Assembly (NCBI GenBank): GCA_036267155.1 | Contig: DATAWP010000082.1 | Span: 35,686-99,685, forward strand | Reading direction: 5' to 3' | Origin: Tepidisphaeraceae bacterium | GTDB lineage: Bacteria; Planctomycetota; Phycisphaerae; Tepidisphaerales; Tepidisphaeraceae | DNA length: 64,000 bases | Shown here: one piece after another, positions 17,279 through 60,512 of the stretch | Layout of the letters: each line of letters begins with the position of its first letter | Position numbering within the stretch: position 1 is the stretch's first letter | Program-made: the position numbers and the translations under genes | The notes under the pieces: model-generated | What the model saw: only the letters and a program-made list of their open reading frames with translations | Databases searched by the model: none | Told to the model about the DNA's origin: nothing

Positions 17279-19396
17279 ATGGCCAGCGCCCGTTTCGCCT
17301 GGGGCATCGATATCGGTAATCGTGCCCTGAAGGCAATCAAGCTCGTCCGTGGAGAGGGCGGCCTGCGGATTGATGACTTCGAGGTGATCGAGCACGAGAA
17401 CGTCCTGTCCAACGCGGGGGACAACAAAGAAGCGCTGATCCAATCCGCGCTGGCTAATTTCGTGCAGAGGCATGCGATCAAAGGGGGTGTGGCGGCGATC
17501 AGCGTCAGCGGGGTTTCCAGCTTTGCCCGGTTCATCAAGCTGCCGCCGGTGGAACCCAAGAAGATTCCGGAAATCGTCCGTTTCGAAGCGATTCAGCAAA
17601 TCCCCTTTCCACTGGACGATGTCGAGTGGAGCTACCAGCTTTTTCAGACGCCCGAATCGCCGGATGTGGAGGTCGGCATCTTCGCGATGCGGCGGGAGCT
17701 GGTGAACGCGCACATCAAGCACTTCACGGATGTGGATCTGAACGTGCAGGTCGTGCAGATGAATCCGCTGGCGGTCTACAATGCGATGTATCACGACAAC
17801 CGCTTGCAGGGCACGACGATGATCATCGACCTGGGGGCGGAAAACACGGATCTGATCATCGCGGATGGGGAGACCATCTGGCTAAGGTCGATCCCCATCG
17901 GGGGGAATAATTTCACGGAAGTGCTGGTCAAGAGCTTCAAGTTGCCGTTTAACAAGGCGGAAGACCTGAAGCGGAACGCGAACACGAGCAAATATGCTCG
18001 CCAGATTTTCCAGGCGATGCGGCCGGTTTTTGCCGATCTGGTGGCCGAGATTCAGCGGAGCATCGGGTTTTATTCCTCGGTGCATCGCGAGTCACGAATC
18101 AAGAAAGTCCTGGCCCTCGGCGGCACATTCCGCCTGGCGGGACTGCAAAAATACCTTCAGCAGAACCTGCAACTGGATGTGGAGAAGCTCAATGAGCTGA
18201 CCGCCGGCGCCCCGGCGGATGCCAAGCTGGCGGCCACGTTCAATCAGAACCTGCTGTCGCTGGTGAGCGCTTACGGCCTGGCGATCCAGGCGATGGGCGA
18301 CAGCAAGATCACCAGCAGCCTGCTCCCGATGAAGATTCGCCGGGAGAAGATGTGGAGGGACAAGACCAAGTGGTTCGGCGCCGCCGCGGCAATATTCGTG
18401 CTGGGCACCGGCATGTCTCTGCTGGGTTATTATCTGCGCGATTTGGAATATAAGAGCGCCGCGGACATCCGTGAGAACCGCATTGACCCGATCCTGAGAC
18501 AAGCGACGGACCTTAGCGATGCGTGGAGGGACAAAGTTGAAGGCAACGGCGCGACGGATCGAATGACGATTCAGAATGTGCGGTCCATGCTGGAGGGGCG
18601 CGGCTTATGGATCAATTTGCTGGGGGATGTCTTTGCTTCGCTGCCGCCGGTGCCGACCGGGTATCCCACTGCGGAATACCTTAAGACCCATCCGCGGCCG
18701 ACCCGGAATATCATCCTCATCGATAAGATCGAATCGACATATTATCCCGATCTGCTCCAAGCGCTCACGGCTGCGCCGCCGGAACTTGCAATGGCGCCCG
18801 CCGTGGCCGGTCAGCCGCCGAGCGACCCGGCGATTCCCAGCGGGTCCCGCGGTTTTATCATCACTATCAGCATAACTACGCCGCATAAAGACGGCTTTTT
18901 GTTGGCCCTGACCAGCTTCATCCCGAATTTAAAGAAACATGATCGGGCGGCGATGGATGCGTGGAATACCGCCAACCCAAAGAACCCCAAGACCTATTAC
19001 ATTGCCAAGGTCTCGGCTCCGATGCAGCAGGTCCGGATCAGCGATGACCCGACCCGGATTCAGCAAATGCAGGCTTCGTACACAGACGCTCAGAATCTGT
19101 TGGGCGTGAAGCCGGGCGACCAGCAGCCGGCGGTCAACCCGACGGGCAGATCGCCATACGGCGGTTACGGCGGTCCGCCGGGATATGGCCGCTTCGGTGG
19201 TCTGCCCAGAGGATATATCCCGCAGCCCGCCAACCAGCCGGCGGGAAACGCACCCGGAATGGACAACGGCATGTACATTGATCGCCTGACTCAGGAGGAC
19301 CGCCGTGACGATTGGGAGATGAAGGTAGAGTTGATCGTGGTCATCGATCCATCCCCGCAGGCGCCGGCCGCCCCGGCATCGCCGCAGTCGCCTTGA
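17279..19396 (+). CDS. pilM: type IV pilus assembly protein PilM fused to a TM/periplasmic (PilN-like) extension
   Basis: 705 aa. The N-terminal roughly 340 aa form an actin-like ATPase fold typical of PilM (WGIDIGNRALKAIKL..., GGTFRLAGLQKYL). A TM helix follows (WFGAAAAIFVLGTGMSLLGYYL), then a long C-terminal region with a PYGGYGGPPGYGRFGG tract. Confidence 0.8.
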   Translation: MASARFAWGIDIGNRALKAIKLVRGEGGLRIDDFEVIEHENVLSNAGDNKEALIQSALANFVQRHAIKGGVAAISVSGVSSFARFIKLPPVEPKKIPEIVRFEAIQQIPFPLDDVEWSYQLFQTPESPDVEVGIFAMRRELVNAHIKHFTDVDLNVQVVQMNPLAVYNAMYHDNRLQGTTMIIDLGAENTDLIIADGETIWLRSIPIGGNNFTEVLVKSFKLPFNKAEDLKRNANTSKYARQIFQAMRPVFADLVAEIQRSIGFYSSVHRESRIKKVLALGGTFRLAGLQKYLQQNLQLDVEKLNELTAGAPADAKLAATFNQNLLSLVSAYGLAIQAMGDSKITSSLLPMKIRREKMWRDKTKWFGAAAAIFVLGTGMSLLGYYLRDLEYKSAADIRENRIDPILRQATDLSDAWRDKVEGNGATDRMTIQNVRSMLEGRGLWINLLGDVFASLPPVPTGYPTAEYLKTHPRPTRNIILIDKIESTYYPDLLQALTAAPPELAMAPAVAGQPPSDPAIPSGSRGFIITISITTPHKDGFLLALTSFIPNLKKHDRAAMDAWNTANPKNPKTYYIAKVSAPMQQVRISDDPTRIQQMQASYTDAQNLLGVKPGDQQPAVNPTGRSPYGGYGGPPGYGRFGGLPRGYIPQPANQPAGNAPGMDNGMYIDRLTQEDRRDDWEMKVELIVVIDPSPQAPAAPASPQSP

Positions 19397-19412
19397 AAAG
19401 CGGAGACGCCAA

Positions 19413-20801
19413 ATGGAAGTGCTAAAGAAAAATCTATTCAGCATCATCTTTGGGATCATTGCGATCCTGGCCGTCGTGGCGTTGTACTGGCCGATGGACG
19501 GGTTGTACGCCACGCTGCGCACTGAACTCGACAGCCGCGTTCAGGTGAGCAGTAGCCTGGACGCGTTGACGAACGCTTCGCGGTCGATGCCGCTGTTGTC
19601 GCCGGATGAGACCAATCCCGCTCCGCTTGAGGTTTTCCCAACGCAGCCGGTCATTGACGCCGGTATAGCGGCAACCCAGCAGGTCAGCCAACAGGCTCAA
19701 AAAATGCTCGATCGCGCGGTGAGCGCCAATCAGCATTTGCCGCTGTTGCCGGATGAATTGCCCAAGCCGACCGATTCCAACCGCTATCTGTTTGCCCAGC
19801 AATATGCACGGGCAACGACGGATTACTCGCGCTGGCAGCAGATTCTGGACTCCACGGCGCCTCCAACGCCCGAAGAAGTTCAGGCGGCGAAGGACAAGCT
19901 TCTCGAGGAAATCGACAAGGCGCGGCTGGTCACCGACGCGCAGGGCAATCCAACTCCTGATTCAACGGCCGAGGCGCAGGAGGAATATGGCCTGGAATCG
20001 GCATCGGTTCAGCCGCGCATGGAGTTGGAACGGGCGCAGCGGCACCAAATATATTTGTTGCCGAATTCGCTGCCGGTGGACACGAAAATCAAGGATGGAA
20101 CGTTCCCCATGCCGGACGAGATTTGCGATGCCCAGCTTGTGATGTGGGTGTTGGATGACGTCACGCAGGCGATCGCAAAGGCGAACGAGCTTTATTCCGA
20201 TCCGGCTTCACCGGGCGGGCCGCCTCAGCACGACATCCTCCATGCCGCGGTGAAGAGCATCGAGGGAATTGACGCTCCCGCGCCGGTTCTCGCTCAGACG
20301 GGAGTGGACGCGACGGCGGGCGTCAACAGCCCCGCGCCGATGGATCCGACGGTGTCCCCCACCGGCCGGGTCTGCAACGGGCTGTATGACGCGGTGCGAT
20401 TCCGGGTCAGACTGGTAGTGGATGCGGCGAAGGTCGAAGAGGTGATGCGTCAACTGGAAGTGGGTCAGTTCATCACCGTGTTGAATGTGCAATTCAATGA
20501 AGTGGTCGACCCCGCCGCCGCAGCGTCGGCGACGACCGGCGGTTTTCGCTACGGCGATAAGCCGGTCGTGAGGGTGGAGTTCGACTGTGAGGAATTGCTG
20601 ATGCGGAAGTGGACTGACAACATTCTTCCCGAATCGAGGAAGAACGGATTAGGCAAAGGCGCGTTGGGCAACTCGCCGGAGAATGGCGCCCAGCCGGAGT
20701 ATGGGCAGCCCGGCGGTCCCCCCGGCGGCGCGCCCGGTTTTGGCGTACCCCCTAGATTTGGCGGGCCTCCCGGTGGCTTTGGTGGACCGCCGCGCCGTTA
20801 G
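19413..20801 (+). CDS. hypothetical N-terminally anchored protein in pilM operon (PilO-position)
   Basis: 462 aa. It has an N-terminal TM helix (LFSIIFGIIAILAVVALYW) and the C-terminal tail GGPPGGAPGFGVPPRFGGPPGGFGGPPRR. It starts 17 nt after the pilM stop. Confidence 0.7.
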   Translation: MEVLKKNLFSIIFGIIAILAVVALYWPMDGLYATLRTELDSRVQVSSSLDALTNASRSMPLLSPDETNPAPLEVFPTQPVIDAGIAATQQVSQQAQKMLDRAVSANQHLPLLPDELPKPTDSNRYLFAQQYARATTDYSRWQQILDSTAPPTPEEVQAAKDKLLEEIDKARLVTDAQGNPTPDSTAEAQEEYGLESASVQPRMELERAQRHQIYLLPNSLPVDTKIKDGTFPMPDEICDAQLVMWVLDDVTQAIAKANELYSDPASPGGPPQHDILHAAVKSIEGIDAPAPVLAQTGVDATAGVNSPAPMDPTVSPTGRVCNGLYDAVRFRVRLVVDAAKVEEVMRQLEVGQFITVLNVQFNEVVDPAAAASATTGGFRYGDKPVVRVEFDCEELLMRKWTDNILPESRKNGLGKGALGNSPENGAQPEYGQPGGPPGGAPGFGVPPRFGGPPGGFGGPPRR

Positions 20802-20832
20802 TTTTCTGGCGGATTTGTTGTTCGGGTGATTT

Positions 20833-22746
20833 ATGCAAAAGATTGTACGATTCCTCGAATCGAGCGTGGAGTGGGTGGTTTTGGGAATCGCCGTTCTCTT
20901 TTTGGGATGGGCGGCATTCTACTACCTGATCAGCGACCCCGTTTCCAAAACGCTGGAAGGAACCTCCGTCAACCCGGGCACCGTTGATCAATTCATTGCG
21001 GACCACGCGGCCAAGCGGTTGGGAGACAAGATTAGCGACGTGGAGGCGGTGCCGAGCTTCAACGTCGAGAATTTCACCCTCGCGCTGGATCAGAAGCTTT
21101 CATTGGACGACGACAAGCCAACGGAATTGGCGAGCGGCGATTTCGATTACTCGCCATTTGACATCGGCAATTTGCCAGGCCAGGCCAATACGCTGGGCGT
21201 TCCGGTGCAAGTGCTTCCGACCTTGCCGGCTGCGCAACCGCTGCTGATTGCCGCCGCGCTTGATACGCTTGCCCCGCCAAACGCAAACGGCGCCGCGCCC
21301 AATGCAGCGGCGCCGAACGGGGCGCAGCCGGCGATCGTGGGAAAAGACACGCGATTGGTGGTCGCGGCGTTTACGATTCCCTGGTCCAACCTTTACAATC
21401 AATGGAACAAATCGTTTGGACCGCCTCAGCCGAGCGGCCAACCGAGGCTCTCGCCGGCGGATTTCGAGATTCTGGCAATCACGGCCTATCGCGATGAGAA
21501 GATCGGTACCCAGTGGAGCAAGGGTACCGAGGTGAAGGCGTTCATTAGCGATCTGCCGAAGTATCCGAAAGCTGGTGATAAGCTCGCCGAGCAGAATTAT
21601 TTGCAGGCCCTCGCAAAAGAATCGAACGCGGTGGTTGCGCCAACGATTCCAACACCACTGGCCGGCGTGGTGTGGAAAGATCCGCTGATGTATTTGCCGT
21701 CAACTTCCGGCCAAGCCGGCAACCCCAGCCCAGCGGAACAAAACGGCTCAGGCATGCTACCGGCAACTGAACAGCCGATGGTGATCAATACATCCGAATC
21801 GTTGGGAGGAACGCTGTTGGCCCAGTATCGGGGCGGTGTAGGCGGACCTCCGGCCGGATTTGGTGGTGGCCCCCGCTTTGGCGGCCCCCCGCGACCCCAG
21901 GCGCCGCCGCAGAACACCGAGCAGACGCCGCCACCCCCGCCGACGCCCATTGCGCCCGCGCCTGGAACGGTCGATCCCGTCGTCGTGCTTGCCAAGCCGA
22001 ACGTGGCGCCCAATCCAATGCCTGTTGAGGCAGCGAAGCAGTTGAATATCGTTGCGATGCCCGCGAAAGGGCCGGATTTATGCGTGTACATCGTCGATGA
22101 TACAGCCGACGCGGGTAAAACGTATCGGTATCGCATCGTTTACAAGGTGCTCAACCCGCTGTTCAACAAGGCGCCCGAACACGCATCCAAAGCCCAGTGG
22201 GTGAATCAATTCGATCTGGTCTCCCCCATGAGCGACTTCTCGCCGGAGATCACGGTTCCGGTGCAGACTTATTTCTTTTGCGGAAAACAGCAGGGCATCA
22301 GCAAAACTTCCGCCTGTCCATTCGACGTTTTCACCTGGTCCAATGGGAAGTGGCAGCAGAAGACGTTTAACGCCAACGTGGGCGATCCGATCGGCGGAAT
22401 GGACGGCACGGTGGACTATTTCACCGGATATAGCTTCGTGGAAAAACAGTCCACGCGAAACAGCAAAACGCTGGTCACGCTGGTCGACCGCGACGGCATC
22501 GCCGATATTCGCGATGCATCGAAGGATTACGAAAGCGCGGATTACAAACAGAAAGCGCAATGGGTGGAGCAGGACAAGAACGGCGGCACACAAAATCTTG
22601 CACAGCCGCCCGGCGGAATGCCTGGTGGGTTCGGCAGACCACCTGGCTTCGGTGGCGGCCCCCCCGGCGGGCAACCAGGGTACGGCGGTCCGCCTGGCTA
22701 TGGCGGTCCCCCTGGCTACGGCGGCGCAGCGGGGCGTGGGCGATAG
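20833..22746 (+). CDS. hypothetical N-terminally anchored protein in pilM operon
   Basis: 637 aa. It has an N-terminal TM helix (WVVLGIAVLFLGWAAFYYLI), an internal GGPPAGFGGGPRFGGPPRP tract, and the C-terminal tail GGMPGGFGRPPGFGGGPPGGQPGYGGPPGYGGPPGYGG. Confidence 0.7.
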   Translation: MQKIVRFLESSVEWVVLGIAVLFLGWAAFYYLISDPVSKTLEGTSVNPGTVDQFIADHAAKRLGDKISDVEAVPSFNVENFTLALDQKLSLDDDKPTELASGDFDYSPFDIGNLPGQANTLGVPVQVLPTLPAAQPLLIAAALDTLAPPNANGAAPNAAAPNGAQPAIVGKDTRLVVAAFTIPWSNLYNQWNKSFGPPQPSGQPRLSPADFEILAITAYRDEKIGTQWSKGTEVKAFISDLPKYPKAGDKLAEQNYLQALAKESNAVVAPTIPTPLAGVVWKDPLMYLPSTSGQAGNPSPAEQNGSGMLPATEQPMVINTSESLGGTLLAQYRGGVGGPPAGFGGGPRFGGPPRPQAPPQNTEQTPPPPPTPIAPAPGTVDPVVVLAKPNVAPNPMPVEAAKQLNIVAMPAKGPDLCVYIVDDTADAGKTYRYRIVYKVLNPLFNKAPEHASKAQWVNQFDLVSPMSDFSPEITVPVQTYFFCGKQQGISKTSACPFDVFTWSNGKWQQKTFNANVGDPIGGMDGTVDYFTGYSFVEKQSTRNSKTLVTLVDRDGIADIRDASKDYESADYKQKAQWVEQDKNGGTQNLAQPPGGMPGGFGRPPGFGGGPPGGQPGYGGPPGYGGPPGYGGAAGRGR

Positions 22747-36380: not shown

Positions 36381-36809
36381 ATGGCCGGTCCCCAGTTCAT
36401 TACTCCTAAATCAGTAGCCCCCTCTCGGTCCACCAAGCGATTCAAGCTGGCCGAGGCGAATCGGTCGCTCCCTCTGGTGCGCCGGATTGTGTCGGATATC
36501 GTAAAGACCCACGATCAGATCACCACGCTGCAAACATCCCTCGACGGCGCCAAGTCCAAGGAGCAGCCCGTCCTGCAAACCCAACTCGACCGGGCCGTCG
36601 AACATCTGCAAAACTACGTTGAAGAGCTGCACGATGTGGGCTGCGATCTGAAAGATTATCAGATGGGCCTGGTCGACTTCATCGGCCGACACCATGGACA
36701 CGATGTTTGCCTCTGCTGGAAGCTGGGCGAAGAAACGATCTCCTATTGGCACGAAATCCAGACCGGCTTCGCCGGCCGCCAACCGGTGTCGGTCCTCGAA
36801 GAGGATTAG
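36381..36809 (+). CDS. DUF2203-family protein
   Basis: 142 aa. FKLAEANRSLPLVRRIVSDI...GCDLKDYQMGLVDFIG...VCLCWKLGEETISYWHEIQTGFAGRQPV matches my recollection of the DUF2203 pattern. Confidence 0.6.
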   Translation: MAGPQFITPKSVAPSRSTKRFKLAEANRSLPLVRRIVSDIVKTHDQITTLQTSLDGAKSKEQPVLQTQLDRAVEHLQNYVEELHDVGCDLKDYQMGLVDFIGRHHGHDVCLCWKLGEETISYWHEIQTGFAGRQPVSVLEED

Positions 36810-50704: not shown

Positions 50705-51568
50705 ATGAATCGACAGGCTGTTTCACGACGCCGCATTCCGCCGAGCGCCCGGTCTTCGCGGAGGCCGGATATCCGGCTGGTTGCGGTCGATCTGGATGGC
50801 ACTCTGCTGAACGATTCCAAACAGGTCAGCGGCCAAACCGTCAAAGCCCTCGGCTGCGCGATCGATCGTGGAATCCGCGTGGTGATCGCGTCCGCTCGCC
50901 CGCCGCGCAGCGTTCGGCATATTTACAACAGCCTGAAGCTCGACACCTGGCAAATCAATTACAACGGCGCCCTCATCTGGGACGAGCCGAATAAAAAAGT
51001 CATCTTCCATCGCCCCATGCCGGGCGAGCGAGTCCGGCAAATCATCGACCGTGCACGATCGCGATTCGACTCGGTTTTGGTGAGCTGCGAAATCCTCGAC
51101 CGATGGTATACCGATCGCTTCGATCAAACCTACACAACGGAAACCGGCCGATTGTTCAAGCCCGACGTCATCGCCCCTCTGGACGATTTCTGCAAACAGC
51201 CGATCACCAAGCTGCTGCTGCTCGGCGAACGAGGCGTGATCGACAAGCTTGAATCGGCGTTGACCGGCGCCAACAACGGCGACGTCACCATCGTCCGAAC
51301 CGATCCGGAACTTTTGCAGATCATGGACAAATACGTCAGCAAAGCCGCGGCGTTGCAGGTGGTAGTGGAACACTACGGAATTCCCTTGCAAAACGTCATG
51401 GCTCTCGGCGACGCCCCCAACGACGTGGGCATTCTGAAGATCGCCGGCGTCGGCGTGGCGATGGACAACGCCAGCGACATCGTGAAAGAATGCGCCGACT
51501 GGATCGCCCCGTCCAACAACGATCACGGCGTTCACGCGGCGCTGGTAAAGTTCGGTTTGTGCGATTGA
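50705..51568 (+). CDS. Cof-type HAD-IIB family hydrolase
   Basis: 287 aa. LVAVDLDGTLL is HAD motif I, and later GDAPNDVGIL is motif IV. Confidence 0.85.
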   Translation: MNRQAVSRRRIPPSARSSRRPDIRLVAVDLDGTLLNDSKQVSGQTVKALGCAIDRGIRVVIASARPPRSVRHIYNSLKLDTWQINYNGALIWDEPNKKVIFHRPMPGERVRQIIDRARSRFDSVLVSCEILDRWYTDRFDQTYTTETGRLFKPDVIAPLDDFCKQPITKLLLLGERGVIDKLESALTGANNGDVTIVRTDPELLQIMDKYVSKAAALQVVVEHYGIPLQNVMALGDAPNDVGILKIAGVGVAMDNASDIVKECADWIAPSNNDHGVHAALVKFGLCD

Positions 51569-51780: not shown

Positions 51781-54700
51781 CTATGCTGCGTCTTTGTCGT
51801 CGTCGTCATCCGCGGGGACTTCGGCTGCGACGGCCGAGTCCGCCGCGGCTTGGGCGAGGTCCGGCGGGAAGTCGCTTGGCTTGACGCCGCTGGCTTGGCA
51901 TTTTGCGGTCAGCTTCTCTTTCACCTCCGCCAGCCATTTTGCGTTTGGCAATGCGTAGGGGCGGAACTTTTCCATCGAGCCTTGCTCTTCGCTGTAGGCC
52001 AGAGCGCGGTTGGCGCCGAGTTTGTTCGCGGCGGGGGAATCGATCAGGTTGCTGCTGTCGGTGGCGCTCATCTGAAACAGGATGCGGTTGTCCAATTCGC
52101 GCATCGAGCCGCGATCGACTGAACGTTCCAGGGCCGTGGCTGTGTCGATCCAGGCCATGAGGTGAATTCCGTTGGCCGGGCCTTCACGCATCAGGTCGGC
52201 AAATTCCTTGCCGGGATCAGCCGGCTTTTCTTCGCCTCCCGCGGAGAAGCCGAAGGCGTCATCCGATTTCCGCAACGTGCGATAGCGCTGAAGGCCGAAG
52301 ATGAATACGAAAATCGACGGGGGATTGGATGCGTCGCTCGATTGGCGGCGCTCCAGTTCCTTGGCGAGTTCGTGAATGGCCTGCGGCACGGCGCGATAAT
52401 CGACCACTTTGGTCCGATGCGGCAGCACGGCCGCCACGCTTGGGAGAAAGCCGTGGGTGGCGGCATCTACGGGAGTGCCGTCGAGCAGATAAAAGCTCGC
52501 CGAAGCAGGTGAAAGCTGGGCGGCCAGGCCGACCATCGCCAGGGCGGTGATGGCCATCGAGCTTTCTTCGTTCTGGCCAATGATCAGGACGTTGGCGCCG
52601 CTTTGGCGGCGGAATGGGATGGAGGTCGGCGCCTTGATCGCCACGGGATCGCCGAGCCACACGGTCGGCGCGGCGGTGGATGCCACGTATTTCTCCGGCG
52701 ACAAATGGCGAAGCAACGCCGGATTCTGGCGAAAATCGGCTGGCTCGTTTCCTTCAAACACGATCGGCGGTTCAAGATTTTCGTGTTCCTGCGCGGCCTT
52801 GGCGCTGACGGCTTCCAGATATCGGTCGCGTTTTTCATCGGGCAGCCATGCAACCTGGAACGGGCTGTTGCCCTCGACCAATCCGCCGGCGTCGTTGTAG
52901 ATCGCCTCGCCGGGGCGCGAGAGCAATCGGGCGGCGGAGTTGCCGTCGCCGAGGATCATCTGCGAATCGGCGTCGCTGGTTTGCAGGGCGATTCGCACGC
53001 CGATCTGGCCGATGGTGCTGCGCGACAGGCCGGAAGATCCACCGATGGTCTGTGATCCCAGCAGCAGATGTACGCCGAACGCTCGGCCCTGACGAACGAT
53101 GCGGTCGAGCAGCAGGCCGGCATCCTGGGCCAATTTATCGTCTTCGGTGAAGAACTCCTGGAATTCGTCGATGATCAACAGGGTTCGCGGCATCTTCTTG
53201 CCGGAGGCCTCGCGATACATTTGAAGGTTCTGGGATTTGAACGGCCGGAACAAATCGGCGCGGCGACCCATTTCGGCGTCGATGCGCTGCAGCACGCTGA
53301 GACCAAATTCGCGGTCGCTTTCCACCGCGATCGCCCGAGCGTGCGGCAACTGGTGCATGGCGTAGGTCTTGAACTCGACGCCTTTTTTGAAGTCGATCAG
53401 ATACAGCTCGACTTCTTCGGGCGAATACCACATCGCCAGATTGCTGATCAACGCGTGCAGCAGCGTCGATTTACCGGAGCCGGTCTTTCCGGCCACCAGC
53501 GCGTGCTGGGCCACGCCCTTGCCGAGGCGGAAGGTCTGCACCCGCGTGGCGCCGGACCGTCCGACGGCCACCGCGACGTCGCCATCGCTCTTGAGCGTCC
53601 AGAACTGCGCCGGCTTGGGCGCGATCACGTCGAACGACACCTCGACCCGCTTGGCCTCTCGCGCTCCCTTGCCGACGAGGTGGAGAATCTTGCTCAATTC
53701 CTCATCGCTCGGAGGCGCGTCCAGCGACAGCGGGAAGCGATTGAAGACCGGGTCGCGCCAGACGAATCGGTCTCCCTGGCGCTCGAGGTTGACGCTGTGG
53801 GCTTCGAGGTCGTCGAGATGGATCGAGCCGCTGGCGGTGCTGACGCGTGTGTCCCGCGTGACCAGGGTGTAGACCCCGCAGCGCGCCCCCGTGCTAGCGA
53901 TGCTGCTCAGCCGCCGCAGGGCGTCGTCGCTGAAATTCACGGGGAAATCGGCAATCACCAGATATCGATACGGCTCGGCCAACTCGCCGGCCTGGGCGTT
54001 GTAATCGTCGATTGTCGCGTATTCGTTTCGCAGGTATTTCTGAATGACCGTTTCCATGTGCTCGGTCAGGTTCGCGAGTTTTTCATCGATCTGATCGGAA
54101 TCGGTCCAGATGCGGCCGCCCACGAGGGCCTCGTCATAGTCGGCCAGGTGCATGAACCCCGCGAAGTTCTGCCCGAGGCCGACGGGATCGATCAGCGTGA
54201 AACGAACCCGGCCCGGCGGCAGAGCCGTGAGCAGGCGGGTCATTATCATCTGCATGCCGCGAATTGAATCCACGCGACCGGGCCGATCGGTGTGAATCAG
54301 GATCGACGCCTGCTTCGGGTACGCAAACAGCGCCGGAACGCTGAACGTATCCGGCAACGGCAGCGTGAAGGGCGCACCCTTGGCCACGTCCGCGATCATC
54401 GACTTCAGATCCACCTGAAGTTCGCCAAAGCGAATGGTGGCCGGGAATTTGGTCGGACCCTTCCAATGGTCCCAGATCGGATCGCTCCAGGCGGGATAAG
54501 ATCCCCCCTCCTCCTGCATTGGCTCCTGAATGTTCTTCAGGCCTTCGCTCCACTTTTTTTCCAGTTCGGCGCGTTCCGCGGCATGCTGCTGCTGAATTTG
54601 CGCCTCCTGCGCCGTGGCGCGATCGCCAAGCTTGACGGTTTCAGAATCGAATAATTTCTTGACCTCTTCCAGCTTTCGGACGCGCCATTGCTCCAGTTCT

Positions 54701-55914
54701 GTCAGGGATTTCTTTTTCAGTGCCTCTTGCTGCGCCGTCTTGGCCTGGAAATCCACCTGCGCCGCCGCGACGGCGGCATCTCGCTTTTTCGTCGCCTTTT
54801 CCACCATCGGCGTCGCCCGGTCGCGCGCCGCCTGCACTTCGGTTTTTTGGACCTTCTTTGCAGTGGTGAGATCGGTATCGTGCTTCAGGGAAGCCTGGCT
54901 GATCATATTGTCGTTGGCGATGCGGGCCGCATCCAACGCTCGCCGCAGCGGCGTAAAAACGGCCACCACCTGCTTTCGCGCCAGCGAGCGCATGACCAGG
55001 AAAAATACGATCAGCGCGACGACCATCCCGCCGGCCCAGATGCCAATCTGCGGCCACTGCGGATTGAGCGTGCCGGCGATCACCTGCGGGATCGCCGCCG
55101 CGATCACCACGGCCAACAGCCCGATCAAAAACGGGGTGGCGCCGATGAAAAGCTTGGGAATCGAAAGGTCCGCCAGCGCTCGAATCTGCCGCTCGATCAC
55201 TTCCTTGTGCTGGTTGAACGATTCAACCGGATTGAGTGACGCCTCGGCATCCTTGACCGCCGCTAGCGCTTCGCCCGGCGGCGGCCGCTGGTTGTACCGG
55301 GCCATCAGCGACGCCTGCTCCCCTTCCTTCATGTCCACGAATTCCGTTTGCGTGGCGTTCAGCTCCGTCGCATTCTTCAACTCCTGCGAGGCCTTCTGCT
55401 CTTGGGACTCCAGAACGCTTTCCGCAAGCCAGGTCGCCTGGTCATAATCCTTCTTGGCCTGTTGCTGCGCCTGGTCGTATTCCGCGCGAGCCCGATGGCG
55501 CAGGTTCTGATCGGTGGCCTTCAACGACGCGAGCGCGTGCTGATGATGAGAGCTGATCTGCGCCTGTTTTTCCTGGACTTTTGCGGCAACCTGATCTTGA
55601 AGACTCTTGTGCTTGCGCTCGGCGTCACTAAGTTTTCGATGTCCGGTTCCCTGCGCTTCGGAGGAGGAGCTTTGGAATTTCTGCTCGATCTCGGCCTCGT
55701 GCTGGGCGCACTGGGTCGTCAACTCGAGCAGGTCCTGCAGCGCTCCCCTCTGCAAGTCGCGGTGTGTCTTGGGTTCGTTGGAGGCCTCTTCGCCGTCGTC
55801 GCCTTCTCCATCCGAGGAATCTCCGGTGGGGGGCGGTTCCTCCGGCGGCTCAGAGGGAGGACTGGAATCAGAAAGAAAACTGAGCGGATCTTTTTCGTCA
55901 AAAAGCGGGTCCAT
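51781..55914 (-). CDS. FtsK/SpoIIIE-family membrane ATPase, EssC/EccC-like (type VII secretion-like)
   Basis: 1377 aa from ATG 55914 (MDPLFDEK), with GAGG about 10 nt upstream. It has an acidic/coiled-coil N-terminus of about 260 aa and two TM helices (LFIGATPFLIGLLAVVIAAAI, IGIWAGGMVVALIVFFLVM). Three FtsK-like modules follow. Only the middle one has an intact Walker A, GKTGSGKST (53464-53490), and Walker B, LLIIDEF (53171-53191). The first module reads HTDRPGRVDS and the third GQNEESSM at the P-loop position. Confidence 0.85.
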   Translation of the reverse strand: MDPLFDEKDPLSFLSDSSPPSEPPEEPPPTGDSSDGEGDDGEEASNEPKTHRDLQRGALQDLLELTTQCAQHEAEIEQKFQSSSSEAQGTGHRKLSDAERKHKSLQDQVAAKVQEKQAQISSHHQHALASLKATDQNLRHRARAEYDQAQQQAKKDYDQATWLAESVLESQEQKASQELKNATELNATQTEFVDMKEGEQASLMARYNQRPPPGEALAAVKDAEASLNPVESFNQHKEVIERQIRALADLSIPKLFIGATPFLIGLLAVVIAAAIPQVIAGTLNPQWPQIGIWAGGMVVALIVFFLVMRSLARKQVVAVFTPLRRALDAARIANDNMISQASLKHDTDLTTAKKVQKTEVQAARDRATPMVEKATKKRDAAVAAAQVDFQAKTAQQEALKKKSLTELEQWRVRKLEEVKKLFDSETVKLGDRATAQEAQIQQQHAAERAELEKKWSEGLKNIQEPMQEEGGSYPAWSDPIWDHWKGPTKFPATIRFGELQVDLKSMIADVAKGAPFTLPLPDTFSVPALFAYPKQASILIHTDRPGRVDSIRGMQMIMTRLLTALPPGRVRFTLIDPVGLGQNFAGFMHLADYDEALVGGRIWTDSDQIDEKLANLTEHMETVIQKYLRNEYATIDDYNAQAGELAEPYRYLVIADFPVNFSDDALRRLSSIASTGARCGVYTLVTRDTRVSTASGSIHLDDLEAHSVNLERQGDRFVWRDPVFNRFPLSLDAPPSDEELSKILHLVGKGAREAKRVEVSFDVIAPKPAQFWTLKSDGDVAVAVGRSGATRVQTFRLGKGVAQHALVAGKTGSGKSTLLHALISNLAMWYSPEEVELYLIDFKKGVEFKTYAMHQLPHARAIAVESDREFGLSVLQRIDAEMGRRADLFRPFKSQNLQMYREASGKKMPRTLLIIDEFQEFFTEDDKLAQDAGLLLDRIVRQGRAFGVHLLLGSQTIGGSSGLSRSTIGQIGVRIALQTSDADSQMILGDGNSAARLLSRPGEAIYNDAGGLVEGNSPFQVAWLPDEKRDRYLEAVSAKAAQEHENLEPPIVFEGNEPADFRQNPALLRHLSPEKYVASTAAPTVWLGDPVAIKAPTSIPFRRQSGANVLIIGQNEESSMAITALAMVGLAAQLSPASASFYLLDGTPVDAATHGFLPSVAAVLPHRTKVVDYRAVPQAIHELAKELERRQSSDASNPPSIFVFIFGLQRYRTLRKSDDAFGFSAGGEEKPADPGKEFADLMREGPANGIHLMAWIDTATALERSVDRGSMRELDNRILFQMSATDSSNLIDSPAANKLGANRALAYSEEQGSMEKFRPYALPNAKWLAEVKEKLTAKCQASGVKPSDFPPDLAQAAADSAVAAEVPADDDDDKDAA

Positions 55915-55949
55915 CAACTGTGACCTCAAACGGAAGAACGAAATTGGCT

Positions 55950-55987
55950 ATTGCCTATTTTCAAATTGGAAATTAGCAATAGGCAAT
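55950..55987. other. AT-rich hairpin between WXG-like gene and ATPase gene
   Basis: ATTGCCTATT (55950-55959) pairs with AATAGGCAAT (55978-55987) across an 18-nt loop. The direct repeat AAATTGG occurs at 55941 and 55963. The local GC is far below that of the surroundings. Confidence 0.5.
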
Positions 55988-55996
55988 TCTTCTCGG

Positions 55997-56212
55997 TTAC
56001 CCTTCGCAGTCCTGCTTAATCTTCGCGAGAATCTGAGCCATGTGATCCATCGCCCCCACGGCCGTTTTCGCATCCTGTTCCAGCGGGGTCAGGTATTTGC
56101 TCTCGAACCCGCGGGCAGTGGCGTCGCTCCACTGCGATTTGGTCTCGTTCCAACGCATCATGAGTTCCTTTACGGATTTATTCACCTGAGCGCGGCCTTC
56201 GTGCATTCCCAT
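55997..56212 (-). CDS. WXG100-like small helical protein (W-S-D variant)
   Basis: 71 aa: ...VKELMMRWNETKSQWSDATARGFESKYLTPLEQDAKTAVGAMDHMAQILAKIKQD. It has a helix-turn-helix hairpin size and a central W-x-D...F motif shared with the 90-aa protein. Confidence 0.6.
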   Translation of the reverse strand: MGMHEGRAQVNKSVKELMMRWNETKSQWSDATARGFESKYLTPLEQDAKTAVGAMDHMAQILAKIKQDCEG

Positions 56213-56241
56213 TGGATTCTCCGCATTTTTTCAGTTCGGTT

Positions 56242-57312
56242 TCAAACCGCTGCGCTGCCATCCGGCTGGGCCGGATGGAGAATATTTTCGTTCTTCGCGT
56301 TGAAGACGGCCGACAGGCCGTGCGAGTCAACAATCGCCAGATATCCCACGGGCAATTTCAGCAAAGCAGCCAGATCGGGACGTCCAGCCCGCAGATCGCC
56401 TGCCGTTACGGTATTGTACACTCCCGAGTGCGGCCCTTCGACCTGGCCGAGGCACCAAACCCCGCCGGCAGTATCGAGCCGGAGCAAATAGACACTCGTC
56501 GAACCCGTCACGGCCTCCGAGATCACGATCTTCTGCTCATCCCCCGGAGGCGCGGCATTGGCGATGGCGGCGATGCCCGCCGCCTGCTGATCCCTTACCA
56601 CCCCGCATGCCGAACTCACAGGCCCGGGTTCCGCGGATCTGGAGGCGAATATGGCCTGTATAGCCTCTGGCGAAGGCGCGCTCGCCCGCAGCGCCGCTGG
56701 TTCGACGCCTTCGGCCTCCGGCGCGGCGGGGGCTTCTTCGGCAGCCCGCTTCATCGATGCGCTGGCTTCCTCCCCCGCAATTCCACCGGCAGCCCCGGAC
56801 TCGGTAGTGCCTGGGCCCGCCTGGGCCGCCGCGATTCCCAGATATTCGTCTATGTGATCCAGCGTGGTTCCCAGTTGCGCGACCGCCGCCGGCACGCCCG
56901 ACGCCACCTGAATATTAAACCGCGACACTCCGCCCCGATACAGCACGACTTCCTTTTGCAATTGCCGATTCCATCGCTTCACATTCGCCAACTTCTCCTG
57001 CGCATCGGCCAACTTCTTTTTCGCGACCTGCACGGCCTTTTGCTCTTCCACCGCCGAGGGCATCGAGCCGCTGGCATCCTTGTACAAACGCTTGAATCGG
57101 AATGCCTCTTCCGCCTTGAGCAGCTCTTCCTGCCGTTTTCGGATCGTCGAGGTCCAATGATTCATGGCCTCCCCCTCCAGCCATCGGCTGATCCGATTGA
57201 CATCCGAATCGGCGTCCCCCAGCGCGAGCGTTGCCTTCTCCTGAAACTTCGTCAGGTAAATCCGGAATTCCTTAATCGCGTCGGTGGATTCAACCCGTGC
57301 GGAATCGGACAT
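56242..57312 (-). CDS. hypothetical protein: N-terminal helical/coiled-coil domain, Ala/Glu-rich linker, C-terminal beta-rich domain
   Basis: 356 aa, encoded between the two WXG-like genes. No family recognised by eye. Confidence 0.6.
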   Translation of the reverse strand: MSDSARVESTDAIKEFRIYLTKFQEKATLALGDADSDVNRISRWLEGEAMNHWTSTIRKRQEELLKAEEAFRFKRLYKDASGSMPSAVEEQKAVQVAKKKLADAQEKLANVKRWNRQLQKEVVLYRGGVSRFNIQVASGVPAAVAQLGTTLDHIDEYLGIAAAQAGPGTTESGAAGGIAGEEASASMKRAAEEAPAAPEAEGVEPAALRASAPSPEAIQAIFASRSAEPGPVSSACGVVRDQQAAGIAAIANAAPPGDEQKIVISEAVTGSTSVYLLRLDTAGGVWCLGQVEGPHSGVYNTVTAGDLRAGRPDLAALLKLPVGYLAIVDSHGLSAVFNAKNENILHPAQPDGSAAV

Positions 57313-57342
57313 GAACGGCTCCCATCTAACACATCACTCGGC

Positions 57343-57615
57343 TCATCGCTGCTTCAGATAATCCTCGATGGCCGTCGCCTTCTTCGCCAGGAACTTCACG
57401 TGTTCCTGCGAGTTTTCCAAAAACGTTCCGATCGCCTTGACCGTCTGATCGAACGCTTCGGTGAATTTCCGTTGCTCCTGGTCGCGCCAGGTCGCTTCAA
57501 GGCCGTGAAGCTTGGCATTCAACCCGGCCACCAGACCGTGCAACTCGTTGTTAAATCGATTCAAATCCTGGGCAAAACGCCGCAACTCGCCGGGATCGAC
57601 ATTAGCTTTGGCCAT
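57343..57615 (-). CDS. WXG100-family protein (ESAT-6-like; W-R-D variant)
   Basis: 90 aa: MAKANVDPGELRRFAQDLNRFNNELHGLVAGLNAKLHGLEATWRDQEQRKFTEAFDQTVKAIGTFLENSQEHVKFLAKKATAIEDYLKQ. It has the typical length, a two-helix layout, and a central Trp turn. Confidence 0.7.
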   Translation of the reverse strand: MAKANVDPGELRRFAQDLNRFNNELHGLVAGLNAKLHGLEATWRDQEQRKFTEAFDQTVKAIGTFLENSQEHVKFLAKKATAIEDYLKQR

Positions 57616-57679: not shown

Positions 57680-57750
57680 GGGAAGTGGTTAGTGATGAGT
57701 GGTTGGTGTTTTTCTGAAATTCACTAACCACCAACCACTAACCACTTCCC
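57680..57750. other. long imperfect hairpin spanning the rlmB-like stop codon, upstream of the WXG operon
   Basis: GGGAAGTGGTTAGTG (57680-57694) pairs perfectly with CACTAACCACTTCCC (57736-57750). An inner GTTGGTG (57702-57708) pairs with CACCAAC (57729-57735). There is no U-tract on the minus-strand transcript. Confidence 0.5.
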
Positions 57751-58505
57751 AACCCCCTCTGCCGATTCGCCTCCGCCAGAACCACCGCCGCGGCGTGGGA
57801 CAGGGATAACGATGCCGTTCCCGGTTTCGTGGGAATCGAGACGATCCCGTTGCACAACCGCCGCACCGCGCCGGATAACCCGCGCTTCTCTCCGCCGATC
57901 GCCAGGATCACGCCCTTCGCCAAATCCACGTCGCAAATAGTCCGCCTTGCCCCCGCGACACAACCCAACAGACGTATCCCACGCGATTGCAAATCTTCGA
58001 TTATTTCCGTGCCCTCCACCTGCACCAGCGGCAGCCGTTCGAACGCCCCGGATGCCGGCCTGGCCACCTCGATCGGATCAAAATCCCACAGATGTTTTTT
58101 GATCAGCACGGCCACGGCCCCGAACGCTTCGGCGCTCCGCAGCGTGAACCCCAGATTCCTGGCATCCTCCACGCCCTCGATCAGCAACAGCAGGGGCGAA
58201 GTCTGCTTCTCCAGAATCTCCAATAAATCCGCTCCGGTGGTCCGGGGCTTGGCAGTGCACAAGGCCAGCACGCCGCCGTGGGTGGTCCCATGAGCCATGG
58301 AATCCAATTCGCGCCCGGCCACTTTTTTCACCGGCACCCCCGCAGCCAGCGCGGCTTCAAGCACATCCCGGATCTTCTCCGCGTGAGCGCCCTGATTCAC
58401 GAGGATGACTTCAAACCTTCTCTGCCTCGCCGCCAGCGCGGCTAAAACGGATTGCCGTCCTTCTAAATGCTCCATGACTTTCACTTCTCCGCCCCACTGG
58501 TCCAT
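57738..58505 (-). CDS. TrmH/SpoU-family RNA 2'-O-methyltransferase (RlmB-like)
   Basis: A Met at 58505 or 58475 is the likely start (…MEHLEGRQSVLAALAARQ...). SPOUT motifs are present: LLLIEGVEDARNLGFTLRSAEAFG, ILAIGGEKRGLS and SLSLSHAAAVVL. Confidence 0.8.
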   Translation of the reverse strand: MDQWGGEVKVMEHLEGRQSVLAALAARQRRFEVILVNQGAHAEKIRDVLEAALAAGVPVKKVAGRELDSMAHGTTHGGVLALCTAKPRTTGADLLEILEKQTSPLLLLIEGVEDARNLGFTLRSAEAFGAVAVLIKKHLWDFDPIEVARPASGAFERLPLVQVEGTEIIEDLQSRGIRLLGCVAGARRTICDVDLAKGVILAIGGEKRGLSGAVRRLCNGIVSIPTKPGTASLSLSHAAAVVLAEANRQRGLGSG

Positions 58506-58688
58506 AGCATATTCGCAGTACCGCAAATGAGCGACATGAATTATGTCCAGCGAGTCTGTGCGGAAAATCCTGACGAAACGGCACAATAAATGCAAAGAGT
58601 CTTGGCGACAGGTAGAAATCGGATGCACGCAGATCAATCAAATTCGGATTGTTTTACACCGGTGTGCTCCGATTTTTATTTGTGGCAA

Positions 58689-60512
58689 ATGTATTTTCTT
58701 CGCGGCTTCGCGGATATTTTGCGAATCGCTATAATTGCCCCTGTGGCTCGAAATCCAATCCAGCAATTGCCGGCGGCTTTGGTCAACCGCATCGCCGCGG
58801 GTGAGGTCATCGAACGGCCCGGATCTGTCGTCAAGGAACTGGTCGAAAATTCCATCGACGCTGGCGCCACGCACATCGCCGTCGAGGTCGAGGACGGCGG
58901 CCGAGCGCTGATTCGCATCATCGACGACGGCTGCGGAATCCCGGTGCGAGAGTTGCCGCTGGCTTTCGCTTCCCACGCCACGAATAAACTGCAGAGCGAT
59001 GATGATCTGTTCCGCATCGCCACCATGGGCTTTCGGGGTGAAGCGCTGGCGAGTATCGGCGCGGTTTCGCAGACTCGGCTGCTGAGCCGGACGGCCGATG
59101 ACGCGGTGGCATACGAAATCAATAATCACGGCGGACAGATCGATCAGGCCCAGGCGGCCGCAGGCAATCTGGGGACCGTCACGGAGGTTCGGAATCTTTT
59201 TTTTAATACGCCGGCTCGGCGGAAATTCCTCAAAGGGGGCGCGACGGAATTCGGGCATATCAGCGACGCCGTGATTCGGCTGGCAATCCCGCATCCGGAC
59301 GTTTCGTTTCAACTGGTTCACAATGGCCGGAACGCTTTGGAACTGCCCGCCGCCGAGCCGCGCTCACGCTGGCTTGCGGCGTGGCCCGAGGATTTTGCCG
59401 ATCTGTATCTTCCGCTGGAGGGCCGCGATGCGGAAATCTCGCTTGTCGGGTTGATCGGCTTGCCGGAACTCGCCCGGCCAGTGGCGAAGCACCAATTCTT
59501 TTTTCTCAATGGGCGGCCGATCCGTGACCGGTTCATTCAACACGCCTTGCGCGAGGCTTATCGCGGCCTCACCGAGCCGGGCCGGCATCCCGCAGCTATT
59601 CTCCTGCTCTCTTTGCCGCCGCAGGATGTCGATGTAAATGTCCATCCGACCAAGAGCGAAGTTCGCTTCCGGGACAGCTCGCGCATTCACGGTTTGGTCC
59701 TTTCCGCTGTTCGCGAAAAACTGCTCGGAAGCGATCTGGTTCCATCCGCCGTTCCGGCTCGGCAGTTTTCTGCTCCCATGGATGATCCCAATCGAGAGGG
59801 TTTACGGCAAAAGCTGGCGGATTTCTTCAAGTCCGCGATGCCGGAAGCAGCGCCCGCTCCGTTGCCCGCGCAACCCGAGATGCCTCCGGAATTATCTCAA
59901 CCCGCACTTTCATCGCCTGCGCAAACTTCCGATCGCCGCGCTCCGGCCATTCAGCTTCACAACAGTTATCTCGTGGCCGAAAGCGAAGACGGTCTGATCA
60001 TCATCGACCAGCACGCGCTGCACGAGCGGATCATGTATGAGGATTTGCTGGCCCGAGTCTCGCGCGGCCCGCTGGAAAGTCAGCGACTTCTGATTCCCCT
60101 CACGCTCCCGGCCAATGAACGGCAGCAGGAATTGCTCGAGCAGATTCAGCCGTTGCTGAATCGGCTGGGAATCGAGGCGGCCGCGATGGGGCCCGGCGCG
60201 GTGGCCGTTCACGCTTTTCCCAGTTTTCTCCAGCGGCTCGATCCGGTGGAGTTTCTACATGAAGTTCTGGAGCGCGGGGAGCAGGAAGCTCTGGATCTGA
60301 ACCATGAGGAACTCCTGCACGAGATACTTGACATGATGTCGTGCAAGGCGGCCGTCAAAGCCGGCGATCCGCTGTCGCCCGCGGAGATCGAAGCCCTGCT
60401 GGCCCGGCGTCATCTCATCGACCGCAGCAGCAACTGCCCGCATGGACGACCCACGACGCTGCGGCTGAGCCTTCGGGATTTGGAAAAGCAATTCAAGAGA
60501 ACGGGGTTCTGA
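58689..60512 (+). CDS. mutL: DNA mismatch repair protein MutL
   Basis: LVNRIAAGEVIERPGSVVKELVENSIDAGA is the GHKL ATPase motif, and the C-terminal dimerisation domain is present. The start is uncertain: ATG 58689, or the Val codon at 58743 as an alternative start. Confidence 0.9.
   Translation: MYFLRGFADILRIAIIAPVARNPIQQLPAALVNRIAAGEVIERPGSVVKELVENSIDAGATHIAVEVEDGGRALIRIIDDGCGIPVRELPLAFASHATNKLQSDDDLFRIATMGFRGEALASIGAVSQTRLLSRTADDAVAYEINNHGGQIDQAQAAAGNLGTVTEVRNLFFNTPARRKFLKGGATEFGHISDAVIRLAIPHPDVSFQLVHNGRNALELPAAEPRSRWLAAWPEDFADLYLPLEGRDAEISLVGLIGLPELARPVAKHQFFFLNGRPIRDRFIQHALREAYRGLTEPGRHPAAILLLSLPPQDVDVNVHPTKSEVRFRDSSRIHGLVLSAVREKLLGSDLVPSAVPARQFSAPMDDPNREGLRQKLADFFKSAMPEAAPAPLPAQPEMPPELSQPALSSPAQTSDRRAPAIQLHNSYLVAESEDGLIIIDQHALHERIMYEDLLARVSRGPLESQRLLIPLTLPANERQQELLEQIQPLLNRLGIEAAAMGPGAVAVHAFPSFLQRLDPVEFLHEVLERGEQEALDLNHEELLHEILDMMSCKAAVKAGDPLSPAEIEALLARRHLIDRSSNCPHGRPTTLRLSLRDLEKQFKRTGF

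Follow-up and report, generated by a model that had tools for sequence, protein, structure and literature searches.

The biology of type VII secretion systems (T7SSs) rests almost wholly on the Actinomycetota and the Bacillota, where the membrane ATPase EccC or EssC sits within a large, phylum-specific membrane complex. Because EccC/EssC has been studied inside such complexes, the minimal functional T7SS unit is unclear. WXG100 proteins and EccC/EssC are named, in two published accounts, as the pair of components that every T7SS shares (PMC11217815, PMC10765036), and WXG100 plus FtsK pairs of Gram-negative bacteria are given as functionally unconfirmed in a 2023 review (PMC10765036). One such protein with a solved structure is HP0062 of Helicobacter pylori, a helix-hairpin whose dimer is an antiparallel four-helix bundle; it has “WRD” in place of WXG, a variant taken in the literature as equivalent, is clustered with an FtsK/SpoIIIE gene and is of unknown function (PMC3397514). 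The pair of HP0062 and HP0066 (FtsK/SpoIIIE) has been called a minimal T7SS set. Here, we describe a four-gene locus that links an EccC/EssC-like ATPase with a WXG100 protein, found on the minus strand at positions 51781-57615 of a 64,000-nucleotide stretch of a Tepidisphaeraceae genome (contig DATAWP010000082.1; this whole stretch is called the window below). The main new result is that the order of its four genes is conserved throughout the Planctomycetota. A literature search that left aside the surveys of Sutcliffe (2011) and Unnikrishnan (2017) returned no description of a planctomycete operon of this kind, its four-gene make-up, its single-site ATPase, or its phylum-wide conservation; an earlier reading of the same DNA from its letters only (the sequence-only reading) had likewise held that such loci are known from surveys without a function, which agrees with the 2023 review.

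The cassette is transcribed from 57615 to 51781, in the order p90 (57343-57615, 90 amino acids [aa]), p356 or the middle gene (56242-57312, 356 aa), p71 (55997-56212, 71 aa), and the ATPase gene (51781-55914, 1,377 aa from an ATG), all on the minus strand. These four co-oriented open reading frames (ORFs), and the Cof hydrolase and rlmB-like genes on either side, lie exactly where the sequence-only reading had placed them. Spacers within the cassette are 30, 29, and 82 nucleotides (nt), and a Shine-Dalgarno-like GGAG/GAGG stands 5 to 10 nt before each of the four start codons. An upstream TTG at 55929 would give an alternative ATPase of 1,382 aa; the ATG is preferred because of the GAGG ~10 nt before it. 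GC content is even across the region (~0.56 to 0.64) and so gives no sign of a foreign island. Promoter and terminator scans of the region yielded nothing above the shuffled background, and no paralogs of the cassette genes were found in the window. From their layout, the four genes are predicted to form one co-transcribed operon, an arrangement far beyond chance given dozens of orthologs per gene and a gene order that recurs in at least 50 independent loci.

The breadth of this conservation was assessed by scanning one genome per GTDB species with an ATPase alignment, which gave at least 446 confirmed relatives, the best 80 of which were used for all comparisons of loci. These 80 loci were almost all from Planctomycetota and covered the Tepidisphaerales, Phycisphaerales, Sedimentisphaerales, Gemmatales, Isosphaerales (for example, Singulisphaera sp. 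Ch08), Pirellulales, Planctomycetales, and “Ca. Kuenenia”; the exceptions were one incomplete contig labelled Pedosphaera and one “uncultured bacterium.” The nearest ATPase homologs were in metagenome-assembled genomes (MAGs) of Tepidisphaeraceae (Planctomycetota, Phycisphaerae), at 76 to 91% identity, which bears out the Planctomycetota-like host proposed before. Identity of the ATPase among the best 80 loci was 37 to 82% over residues ~50 to 1340 and fell with taxonomic distance, in line with vertical descent. In 56 loci, the sequence upstream of the ATPase extended beyond 2.2 kb; the order p90, middle gene, p71, ATPase was found in 50 of these, or 52 after the correction of two coordinate-filter misses. 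The cassette, which the sequence-only reading had described from one genome, is thus a phylum-wide core operon and not an oddity of that genome. In 22 of 62 loci the stop codon of the middle gene overlaps the start of p71 by 4 nt, suggesting translational coupling of the two. All-versus-all clustering of the ORFs within 10 kb on either side of the 80 loci revealed no other neighbor common to more than ~10 loci; the cassette is thus a unit in itself, set in surroundings that vary from locus to locus. Each locus had one ATPase match in the stretches examined, so that the gene is apparently single-copy. Taken from sequence comparison, the cassette appears to be a vertically inherited operon conserved across the Planctomycetota and not a sporadic island, and phylum-wide vertical inheritance makes it likely that its biology differs from that of such an island.

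Departures from this arrangement were few. Only p71 precedes the ATPase on a MAG contig labelled Phycisphaera mikurensis (L058, 9723-13900), and none of the three small genes adjoins it in a Planctomycetaceae MAG (L043, 9917-13864), so the module can be split; the missing small genes may lie elsewhere in those genomes. The cassette was also seen, at ~50% identity, on a few short contigs binned to Chloroflexi, Anaerolineae, Saccharimonadales, and Pedosphaera (Verrucomicrobiota), among them L081 (JBHIAO010000126.1, Anaerolineae), L069 (Pedosphaera), and P0161, P0167, and P0195. In L081, the one of these contigs that was inspected, the ATPase is broken up over several ORFs, with a Uma2-family gene lying between it and p71. 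The likely source of these off-phylum contigs is mis-binning.

The ATPase has a layout of its own. Residues 1 to 250 (55165-55914), read directly from the sequence, comprise an acidic, Pro-rich start followed by a predicted cytoplasmic coiled coil; no Pfam domain was found there, conservation was poor (mean column identity of 26% in 41 orthologs), and the region occupies the place of the FHA domains in EssC. Two transmembrane (TM) helices separated by a loop of ~10 residues follow at aa 251 to 317 (54964-55164), as judged by direct reading and by a hydropathy scan in which the two hydrophobic segments fell within about residues 250 to 319. Given the short loop and the Arg/Lys residues that come after TM2, both the N-terminal 250 residues and the C-terminal part of ~1,060 residues are predicted to be cytoplasmic. 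From the membrane to the first ATPase-like domain runs a charged-rich region read as coiled coil (aa 318 to 499; 54418-54963), in which no Pfam family was matched. The sole match lay in one part of it (aa 351 to 467; 54514-54864), to the PADLOC model of the coiled-coil tail of ZorA (MotA/ExbB-like) at an E value of 3e-5, probably a compositional coiled-coil similarity.

An AlphaFold2 model of residues 480 to 1377, built with 24 homologs (mean predicted local distance difference test score [pLDDT], 70.8), showed three successive alpha/beta domains. Domain A (aa 500 to 775; 53590-54417) is a degenerate FtsK-like domain by both the model and Pfam (FtsK_SpoIIIE with the domain alone, E 5.5e-5, 23.2 bits), and at the P-loop position it carries S-L-L-I-x5-G-R-x-x-A, with no P-loop lysine in 68 orthologs. 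Its position equals that of the EccC DUF/D0, yet it is specific to the planctomycete ATPase family: a search of 1.84 billion representatives (clusters at 50% identity, E ≤ 1e-30) matched at least 1,000 clusters, typically of 1,290 to 1,390 aa with the domain at the same position, and the named matches were almost all planctomycete. Domain B (aa 776 to 1029; 52828-53589) holds Walker A (GKTGSGKS, residue 809; 53467-53490) and Walker B (LLIIDE, residue 912; 53164-53181), scored 132.5 bits against Pfam FtsK_SpoIIIE (strongest stretch, residues 776 to 956), and had EccC D1 of Thermomonospora curvata as its best sequence match in the PDB (4nh0, E 3e-36); Walker A and D-E-F-Q were invariant in 68 of 68 full-length orthologs from across the phylum. 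Domain C (aa 1030 to 1345; 51880-52827), again degenerate and FtsK-like according to the model, Foldseek, and Pfam (E 5.5e-3), has G-Q-x-E/D-E-A in place of the P-loop, without the P-loop lysine in the same 68 orthologs, and sits where EccC/EssC have the D2/D3 substrate-receptor domains. Profile searches of domains A and C against PDB sequences gave nothing significant, the match of domain C to EccC5 being marginal (E 0.017). The protein ends in an acidic, low-complexity tail evident from direct reading (aa 1346 to 1377 plus the stop codon; 51781-51879; pLDDT <50). The sequence-only reading had called this a multi-P-loop ATPase; that description does not hold, as the protein carries exactly one Walker A and one Walker B motif, and of its three FtsK-like domains a single one holds them in all 68 orthologs. 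By its motifs, the middle domain is predicted to be the only one able to hydrolyze ATP, which would leave each protomer with a single catalytic site.

The ATPase is homologous to EccC/EssC in its fold and in the order of its domains. Among the NCBIfam models, EccCa (E 3e-33), EssC (1e-29), and EccCb (4e-28) ranked first and far outranked FtsK (6e-5), VirB4, and HerA. Foldseek aligned the cytosolic model collinearly with D1-D2-D3 of T. curvata EccC (4nh0) over 889 columns (E 8e-30), followed by EccC D2-D3 (2e-21), EssC D2-D3 (4e-17), and, much lower, single-domain FtsK motors (~6e-11). The grouping with EccC/EssC over FtsK or conjugation ATPases, on which the sequence-only reading depended, was thereby upheld. 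Like its actinobacterial counterparts in the T7SSa (ESX) systems, the protein has two TM helices near its N terminus and, after them, tandem FtsK/SpoIIIE-fold domains collinear with EccC, its domain B is nearest to EccC D1, a degenerate domain precedes the catalytic one as the DUF does in EccC, and its gene is linked to a WXG100 gene whose product has a conserved C-terminal tail. The degenerate-catalytic-degenerate order resembles EccC DUF-D1-D(2/3), and the EccC DUF is itself described, in a passage of one paper, as “a degenerated ATPase domain” (PMC11154593). The planctomycete form differs in having three instead of four P-loop-fold domains, with Walker motifs in one, and in the ~180-residue predicted coiled-coil stalk and the 250-residue N-terminal region that EccC does not have; predicted coiled coils at residues 50 to 250 and 318 to 499 are lacking in EccC and EssC alike.

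Of the two small proteins that the sequence-only reading took as WXG100-like, p90 stood up well. It scored 43.6 bits against Pfam WXG100 (PF06013; cut-off, 27.3) and 35.3 bits against TIGR03930, under the stricter cut-off of 44.85, and all 34 orthologs tested likewise passed the Pfam threshold (best E, 2.4e-12). Neither small protein has a W-x-G, W-x-D standing there in both: the turn of p90 is W43-R-D45 (57481-57489, minus strand), invariant in the 34 orthologs in place of the W-x-G bend, a motif that the Pfam model does not need. Y86 and L87 are invariant too, and the C-terminal tail KKAxxIEEYLxQR (57346-57381, minus strand; the last 12 residues) is among the most conserved parts of a protein whose mean column identity is 61% across the phylum. 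With the p90 family profile, the closest PDB relative was H. pylori HP0062 (3FX7/2GTS; E 1e-12, full length), followed by EsxB of Bacillus anthracis (4e-10) and EsxA of Staphylococcus aureus (9e-5). Residues 1 to 89 of p90 align with the crystallized hairpin of HP0062, which supports a hairpin of ~100 residues, and HP0062 has both a W-R-D turn (SWRDARRDKF) and a tail (LEEDYLEH) like the W-R-D and (E/D)-Y-L of p90. We regard p90, on these sequence matches, as a genuine WXG100 protein of a predicted W-R-D subfamily common to HP0062.

The second small protein, p71, proved divergent, truncated, and below the Pfam cut-off (14.2 bits versus 27.3, E 0.054; 6 of 52 orthologs matched at E <0.1). It matched TIGR03930 at an E value of 5e-4, and its turn W28-S-D30 (56123-56131, minus strand) belongs to a W28-x-D30 that is invariant in the family. 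Alignment of the p90 and p71 families by hhalign gave a probability of 79.8% (E 1.5e-5), in register on W-x-D, and the hidden Markov model (HMM) of p71 cross-matched p90 ORFs in 16 loci, with the p90 of the window at an E value of 0.0018. p71 is best treated as a putative divergent WXG100 relative in which helix 1 is shortened by ~15 residues. A cysteine two to three residues from its C terminus (Cys69, 56003-56005, in R-x-x-C-E/S) was kept in at least 90% of the 52 orthologs; a part in a disulfide or a role as a site of modification is conceivable, and an oxidized Cys69 could report periplasmic export.

The protein between them, p356, had been described as helical/beta and had been given too little weight, being an integral and conserved part of the module; its AlphaFold2 model had an overall pLDDT of 80.6. 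Its N-domain (aa 1 to 164; 56821-57312, minus strand) is modelled as a long antiparallel hairpin of helices 11 to 81 and 86 to 164 that ends in an invariant L-E-x-Y; most 10-residue blocks had a pLDDT of at least 90, with 78 and 70 at the hairpin turn, and W53 and Y157 were invariant in 58 orthologs. The hairpin is the only part of p356 conserved across the phylum. A disordered, Ala/Gly/Pro/Glu-rich linker (aa 165 to 200; 56713-56820; pLDDT <50 at 164 to 200), which differs in length and sequence among orthologs, leads to an optional C-terminal alpha/beta domain (aa 201 to 356 plus the stop codon; 56242-56712) that narrowly passed the cut-off of the Imm33-like Pfam family PF24719 (29.4 bits versus 27) and had no PDB sequence match. 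Lengths of the middle protein in 62 orthologs were bimodal, with 45 short forms of 108 to 264 aa and 17 long forms of 327 to 393 aa; the Imm33-like domain was present in 17 of the 62 and, where present, was conserved and not polymorphic.

The hairpin could not be placed in any described family. Foldseek of p356 against the PDB returned generic coiled-coil hairpins only (best E 0.02, not significant); look-alikes included YscO, CT398, and HP0958, and 3 of 43 members gave weak Pfam matches to YscO, none significant. Homology of the N-domain to p90 or p71 was considered and rejected (hhalign probabilities of 5% and <1%, not significant). The tails of p90, (I/L)-E-(E/D)-Y-L (57346-57381), of the p356 hairpin, L-(E/D)-x-Y (56821-56850), and of HP0062, E-D-Y-L, are alike; they may represent a recognition motif that these proteins have in common and that differs from the mycobacterial YxxxD/E. 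A plus-strand ORF elsewhere in the window (36381-36809) weakly matched the HMM of the p356 N-domain (E 0.0013), probably as coiled-coil noise.

The resemblance to described systems is therefore partial. The likeness to the H. pylori island rests on the comparison of p90 with HP0062 and not on HP0066. That island is a species-level one with a DnaK homolog and an HNH/EndoVII nuclease (toxin-like cargo), and its paralogs sit with TerY-P conflict systems, whereas the planctomycete cassette occurs throughout its phylum, lacks a nuclease, and adds the p356 hairpin protein and p71. With the T7SSb (Ess) systems of the Bacillota, the module has in common three products of one operon: a small, highly conserved WXG100 protein, a protein whose long hairpin is joined through a linker to a C-domain, and a second small helical protein. 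Its ATPase also matches EssC D2-D3 strongly in structure. An elongated hairpin (helices 11 to 81 and 86 to 164) flanked by two small helical partners, p90 and p71, is the layout of LXG and Lap genes, and the modelled succession of hairpin, linker, and variable C terminus corresponds to the general layout of LXG- or EspB-type substrates. The module is T7SS-like and stands outside both T7SSa and T7SSb.

We favor, with a probability of roughly 55%, the reading of this operon as an ancient, vertically inherited, minimal T7SS-like module, core to the Planctomycetota, that probably exports a helical complex across the inner membrane. Linkage of an EccC/EssC-family ATPase gene with a WXG100 gene is the minimal system-level definition of a T7SS, and it is what the locus holds. 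By analogy with EccC and FtsK, the ATPase would form a hexamer whose 12 TM helices make up an inner-membrane channel. p90, p71, and the p356 hairpin would pre-assemble in the cytoplasm as a helical bundle, as EsxA/EsxB do and as in the Lap1-Lap2-LXG pre-secretion complexes reported for T7SSb in part of one account (PMC10801868). No hydrophobic segment appeared in a hydropathy scan of p90, p356, and p71, which therefore have no N-terminal segment of the Sec or Tat type. The invariant p90 tail (IEEYLxQR) would dock on domain C, as the EsxB tail does on EccC D3 (the title of PDB entry 4n1a names EccC ATPases 2-3 with a signal-sequence peptide), and docking would activate the single catalytic domain B, whose ATP hydrolysis would drive the folded helical complex across the cytoplasmic membrane. 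Because the ATPase has only ~10 periplasmic residues and no outer-membrane partner is linked to it, delivery would be to the periplasm or membrane and not to the medium. Phylum-wide, apparently single-copy conservation indicates a housekeeping, envelope-related job and not an accessory weapon.

Several findings weigh against export by this module. Strict phylum-wide conservation is unusual for known T7SSs. The ATPase fell below the curated equivalog cut-offs of all three EccC/EssC models: TIGR03924 and TIGR03925 of T7SSa gave 115.5 bits versus 509 and 98 versus 346.6, and TIGR03928 of T7SSb gave 102.6 versus 778, the shortfall being due to the alignment of only ~200 residues, that is, the single catalytic domain. 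It has one Walker A domain where D1 to D3 would have three, and no FHA domain of the EssC type by Pfam. As the sequence-only reading had noted, no other core component is at hand: within 10 kb of the 80 loci, EccB, EccD, EccE, MycP, and EspG of T7SSa and EssA, EssB, EsaA, and EsaB of T7SSb are not linked, and the four products match none of EccB/D/E/MycP or EssA/EssB/EsaA. Family alignments of p90, p71, and p356 contained neither the YxxxD/E nor the FxxxD export motif, and the 43 members of the p356 N-domain family gave no consistent Pfam match and none to LXG, EspB, or PE/PPE. No outer-membrane or periplasm-spanning component is conserved near the cassette in the same 80 neighborhoods; planctomycetes are regarded as diderm in a passage of PMC10632474, and yet the module has no route across the periplasm and outer membrane. 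Export by any member of this ATPase/WXG100 family is argued here by analogy.

Much of this would fit a non-secretory housekeeping machine at the cytoplasmic face of the membrane, which might, for example, remodel the membrane or envelope, take part in budding or division, or serve as a regulatory switch, with the helical proteins as adaptors or a stalk in the ATPase ring, as FliJ/YscO are, and not as cargo. We hold this, the chief alternative to export, to be possible, though not probable. The module is phylum-wide and vertical, with no effector polymorphism and one copy per locus in the stretches examined; its ATPase is almost without periplasmic exposure and has large predicted cytoplasmic coiled coils before and after the two TM helices; no gene for a partner in the periplasm or outer membrane is linked to it; p90, at 61% mean column identity, is more conserved than a typical secreted effector; and intracellular or developmental roles have been proposed for Bacillus Esx proteins in a passage of PMC11406982. 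The weak resemblance of the p356 hairpin to YscO, CT398, and HP0958 is nevertheless that of generic coiled coils (E ≥ 0.02), and an optional globular C-terminal domain on a flexible linker looks like cargo and not like a stalk. Conservation of p90 is no bar to secretion either, as EsxA of T7SSb is conserved and yet both a core component and a secreted protein, and every characterized pair of EccC/EssC and WXG100 exports protein.

Two further explanations are much harder to reconcile with the locus. A T7SSb-style interbacterial toxin system, with p356 as an LXG-like effector, p90 and p71 as Lap-like partners, and the Imm33-like part related to immunity, is suggested by the hairpin-linker-C-domain gene flanked by two genes for small helical proteins, which mirrors the Lap1-Lap2-LXG loci as set out in part of PMC10801868, and by the match of the C-terminal domain to a Pfam family whose name comes from an immunity protein. 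It is very unlikely, given that no LXG homology (in the N-domain of p356) or toxin domain was found by Pfam, that the C-terminal domain is absent from 45 of 62 orthologs, and that neither a toxin/immunity pair, an adjacent immunity gene, nor variable cargo is present, the neighbors being unrelated housekeeping genes of what behaves as a conserved core operon and not a variable island. We give still less credence to a DNA translocase of the FtsK/SpoIIIE type for segregation or conjugation, with the small genes as incidental neighbors. The catalytic domain does have the same P-loop fold and Pfam family, and homologs carry the source annotation “DNA segregation ATPase FtsK/SpoIIIE”; FtsK, however, has a single motor domain with a gamma DNA-binding domain and at least four TM helices, and its similarity to the planctomycete ATPase is much weaker than that of EccC. 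The NCBIfam FtsK score was negligible (NF007615, 20.9 bits versus a cut-off of 1,566), Pfam detected neither a gamma domain nor any other DNA-binding domain, degenerate domains in tandem are a trait of EccC, linkage to WXG100 is kept in at least 50 loci, and no relaxase or other conjugation genes lie nearby. Nor is the ATPase the conserved essential “ftsK” of planctomycetes: the canonical FtsK is a separate gene (750 to 900 aa), in Planctopirus limnophila Plim_2063, which is 46% identical to Escherichia coli FtsK and essential (PMC6952346, PMC10632474). An anti-phage defense system was also considered and set aside, as PADLOC gave generic P-loop matches for the ATPase (SspH, HerA, mad8) and none for the small proteins.

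A more specific form of the T7SS-like export reading, which we consider speculative and rather doubtful, is a housekeeping, single-ATPase “proto-T7SS” in which the EccC-like hexamer, with a single catalytic site in each protomer, would be the whole inner-membrane translocon and the exported WXG100/hairpin complex would build or regulate a planctomycete envelope structure, examples being one tied to the enlarged periplasm, to crateriform structures, or to FtsZ-less budding. If so, a T7SS-type exporter would for the first time have an essential or structural role in a diderm with lipopolysaccharide, and EccC paired with WXG100 would by itself be a sufficient, ancestral secretion unit. More generally, the operon keeps the two universal T7SS parts and two helical partners, selected across a whole diderm phylum that includes anammox bacteria. 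Should it prove to be an exporter, it would define a minimal translocon for which one catalytic site suffices, and planctomycetes amenable to genetics would allow a direct test of how T7-type substrates are handled at an outer membrane; otherwise, the EccC/WXG100 pair would have a non-secretory ancestral role. In either case, names become available for four conserved planctomycete genes now annotated “hypothetical” or generically “FtsK/SpoIIIE,” and these genes are tied to the structurally solved, functionally orphan HP0062 of H. pylori.

The surroundings of the cassette are ordinary. Next to the ATPase gene lies a Cof/HAD hydrolase gene on the plus strand (50705-51568; Hydrolase_3, Pfam 221.9 bits), and p90 is preceded by a SpoU/RlmB-like methylase gene on the minus strand (57738-58637), beyond which is the mutL ORF (58590-60512, plus strand). 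The longest RlmB-like ORF, with a TTG start, overlaps the divergent mutL ORF by ~48 nt, and the Pfam domains of its product start at residue 58; translation of rlmB probably begins at an internal ATG, which would leave a short divergent promoter region. Farther away in the window, on the plus strand at 17279-22746, two large ORFs (19413-20801 and 20833-22746, the latter with no Pfam match) come after a gene for a 705-aa PilM-like/FtsA-like protein (PilM_2, E 4.5e-41). This cluster could be one for type IV pilus or type II secretion-like assembly, unrelated to the cassette.

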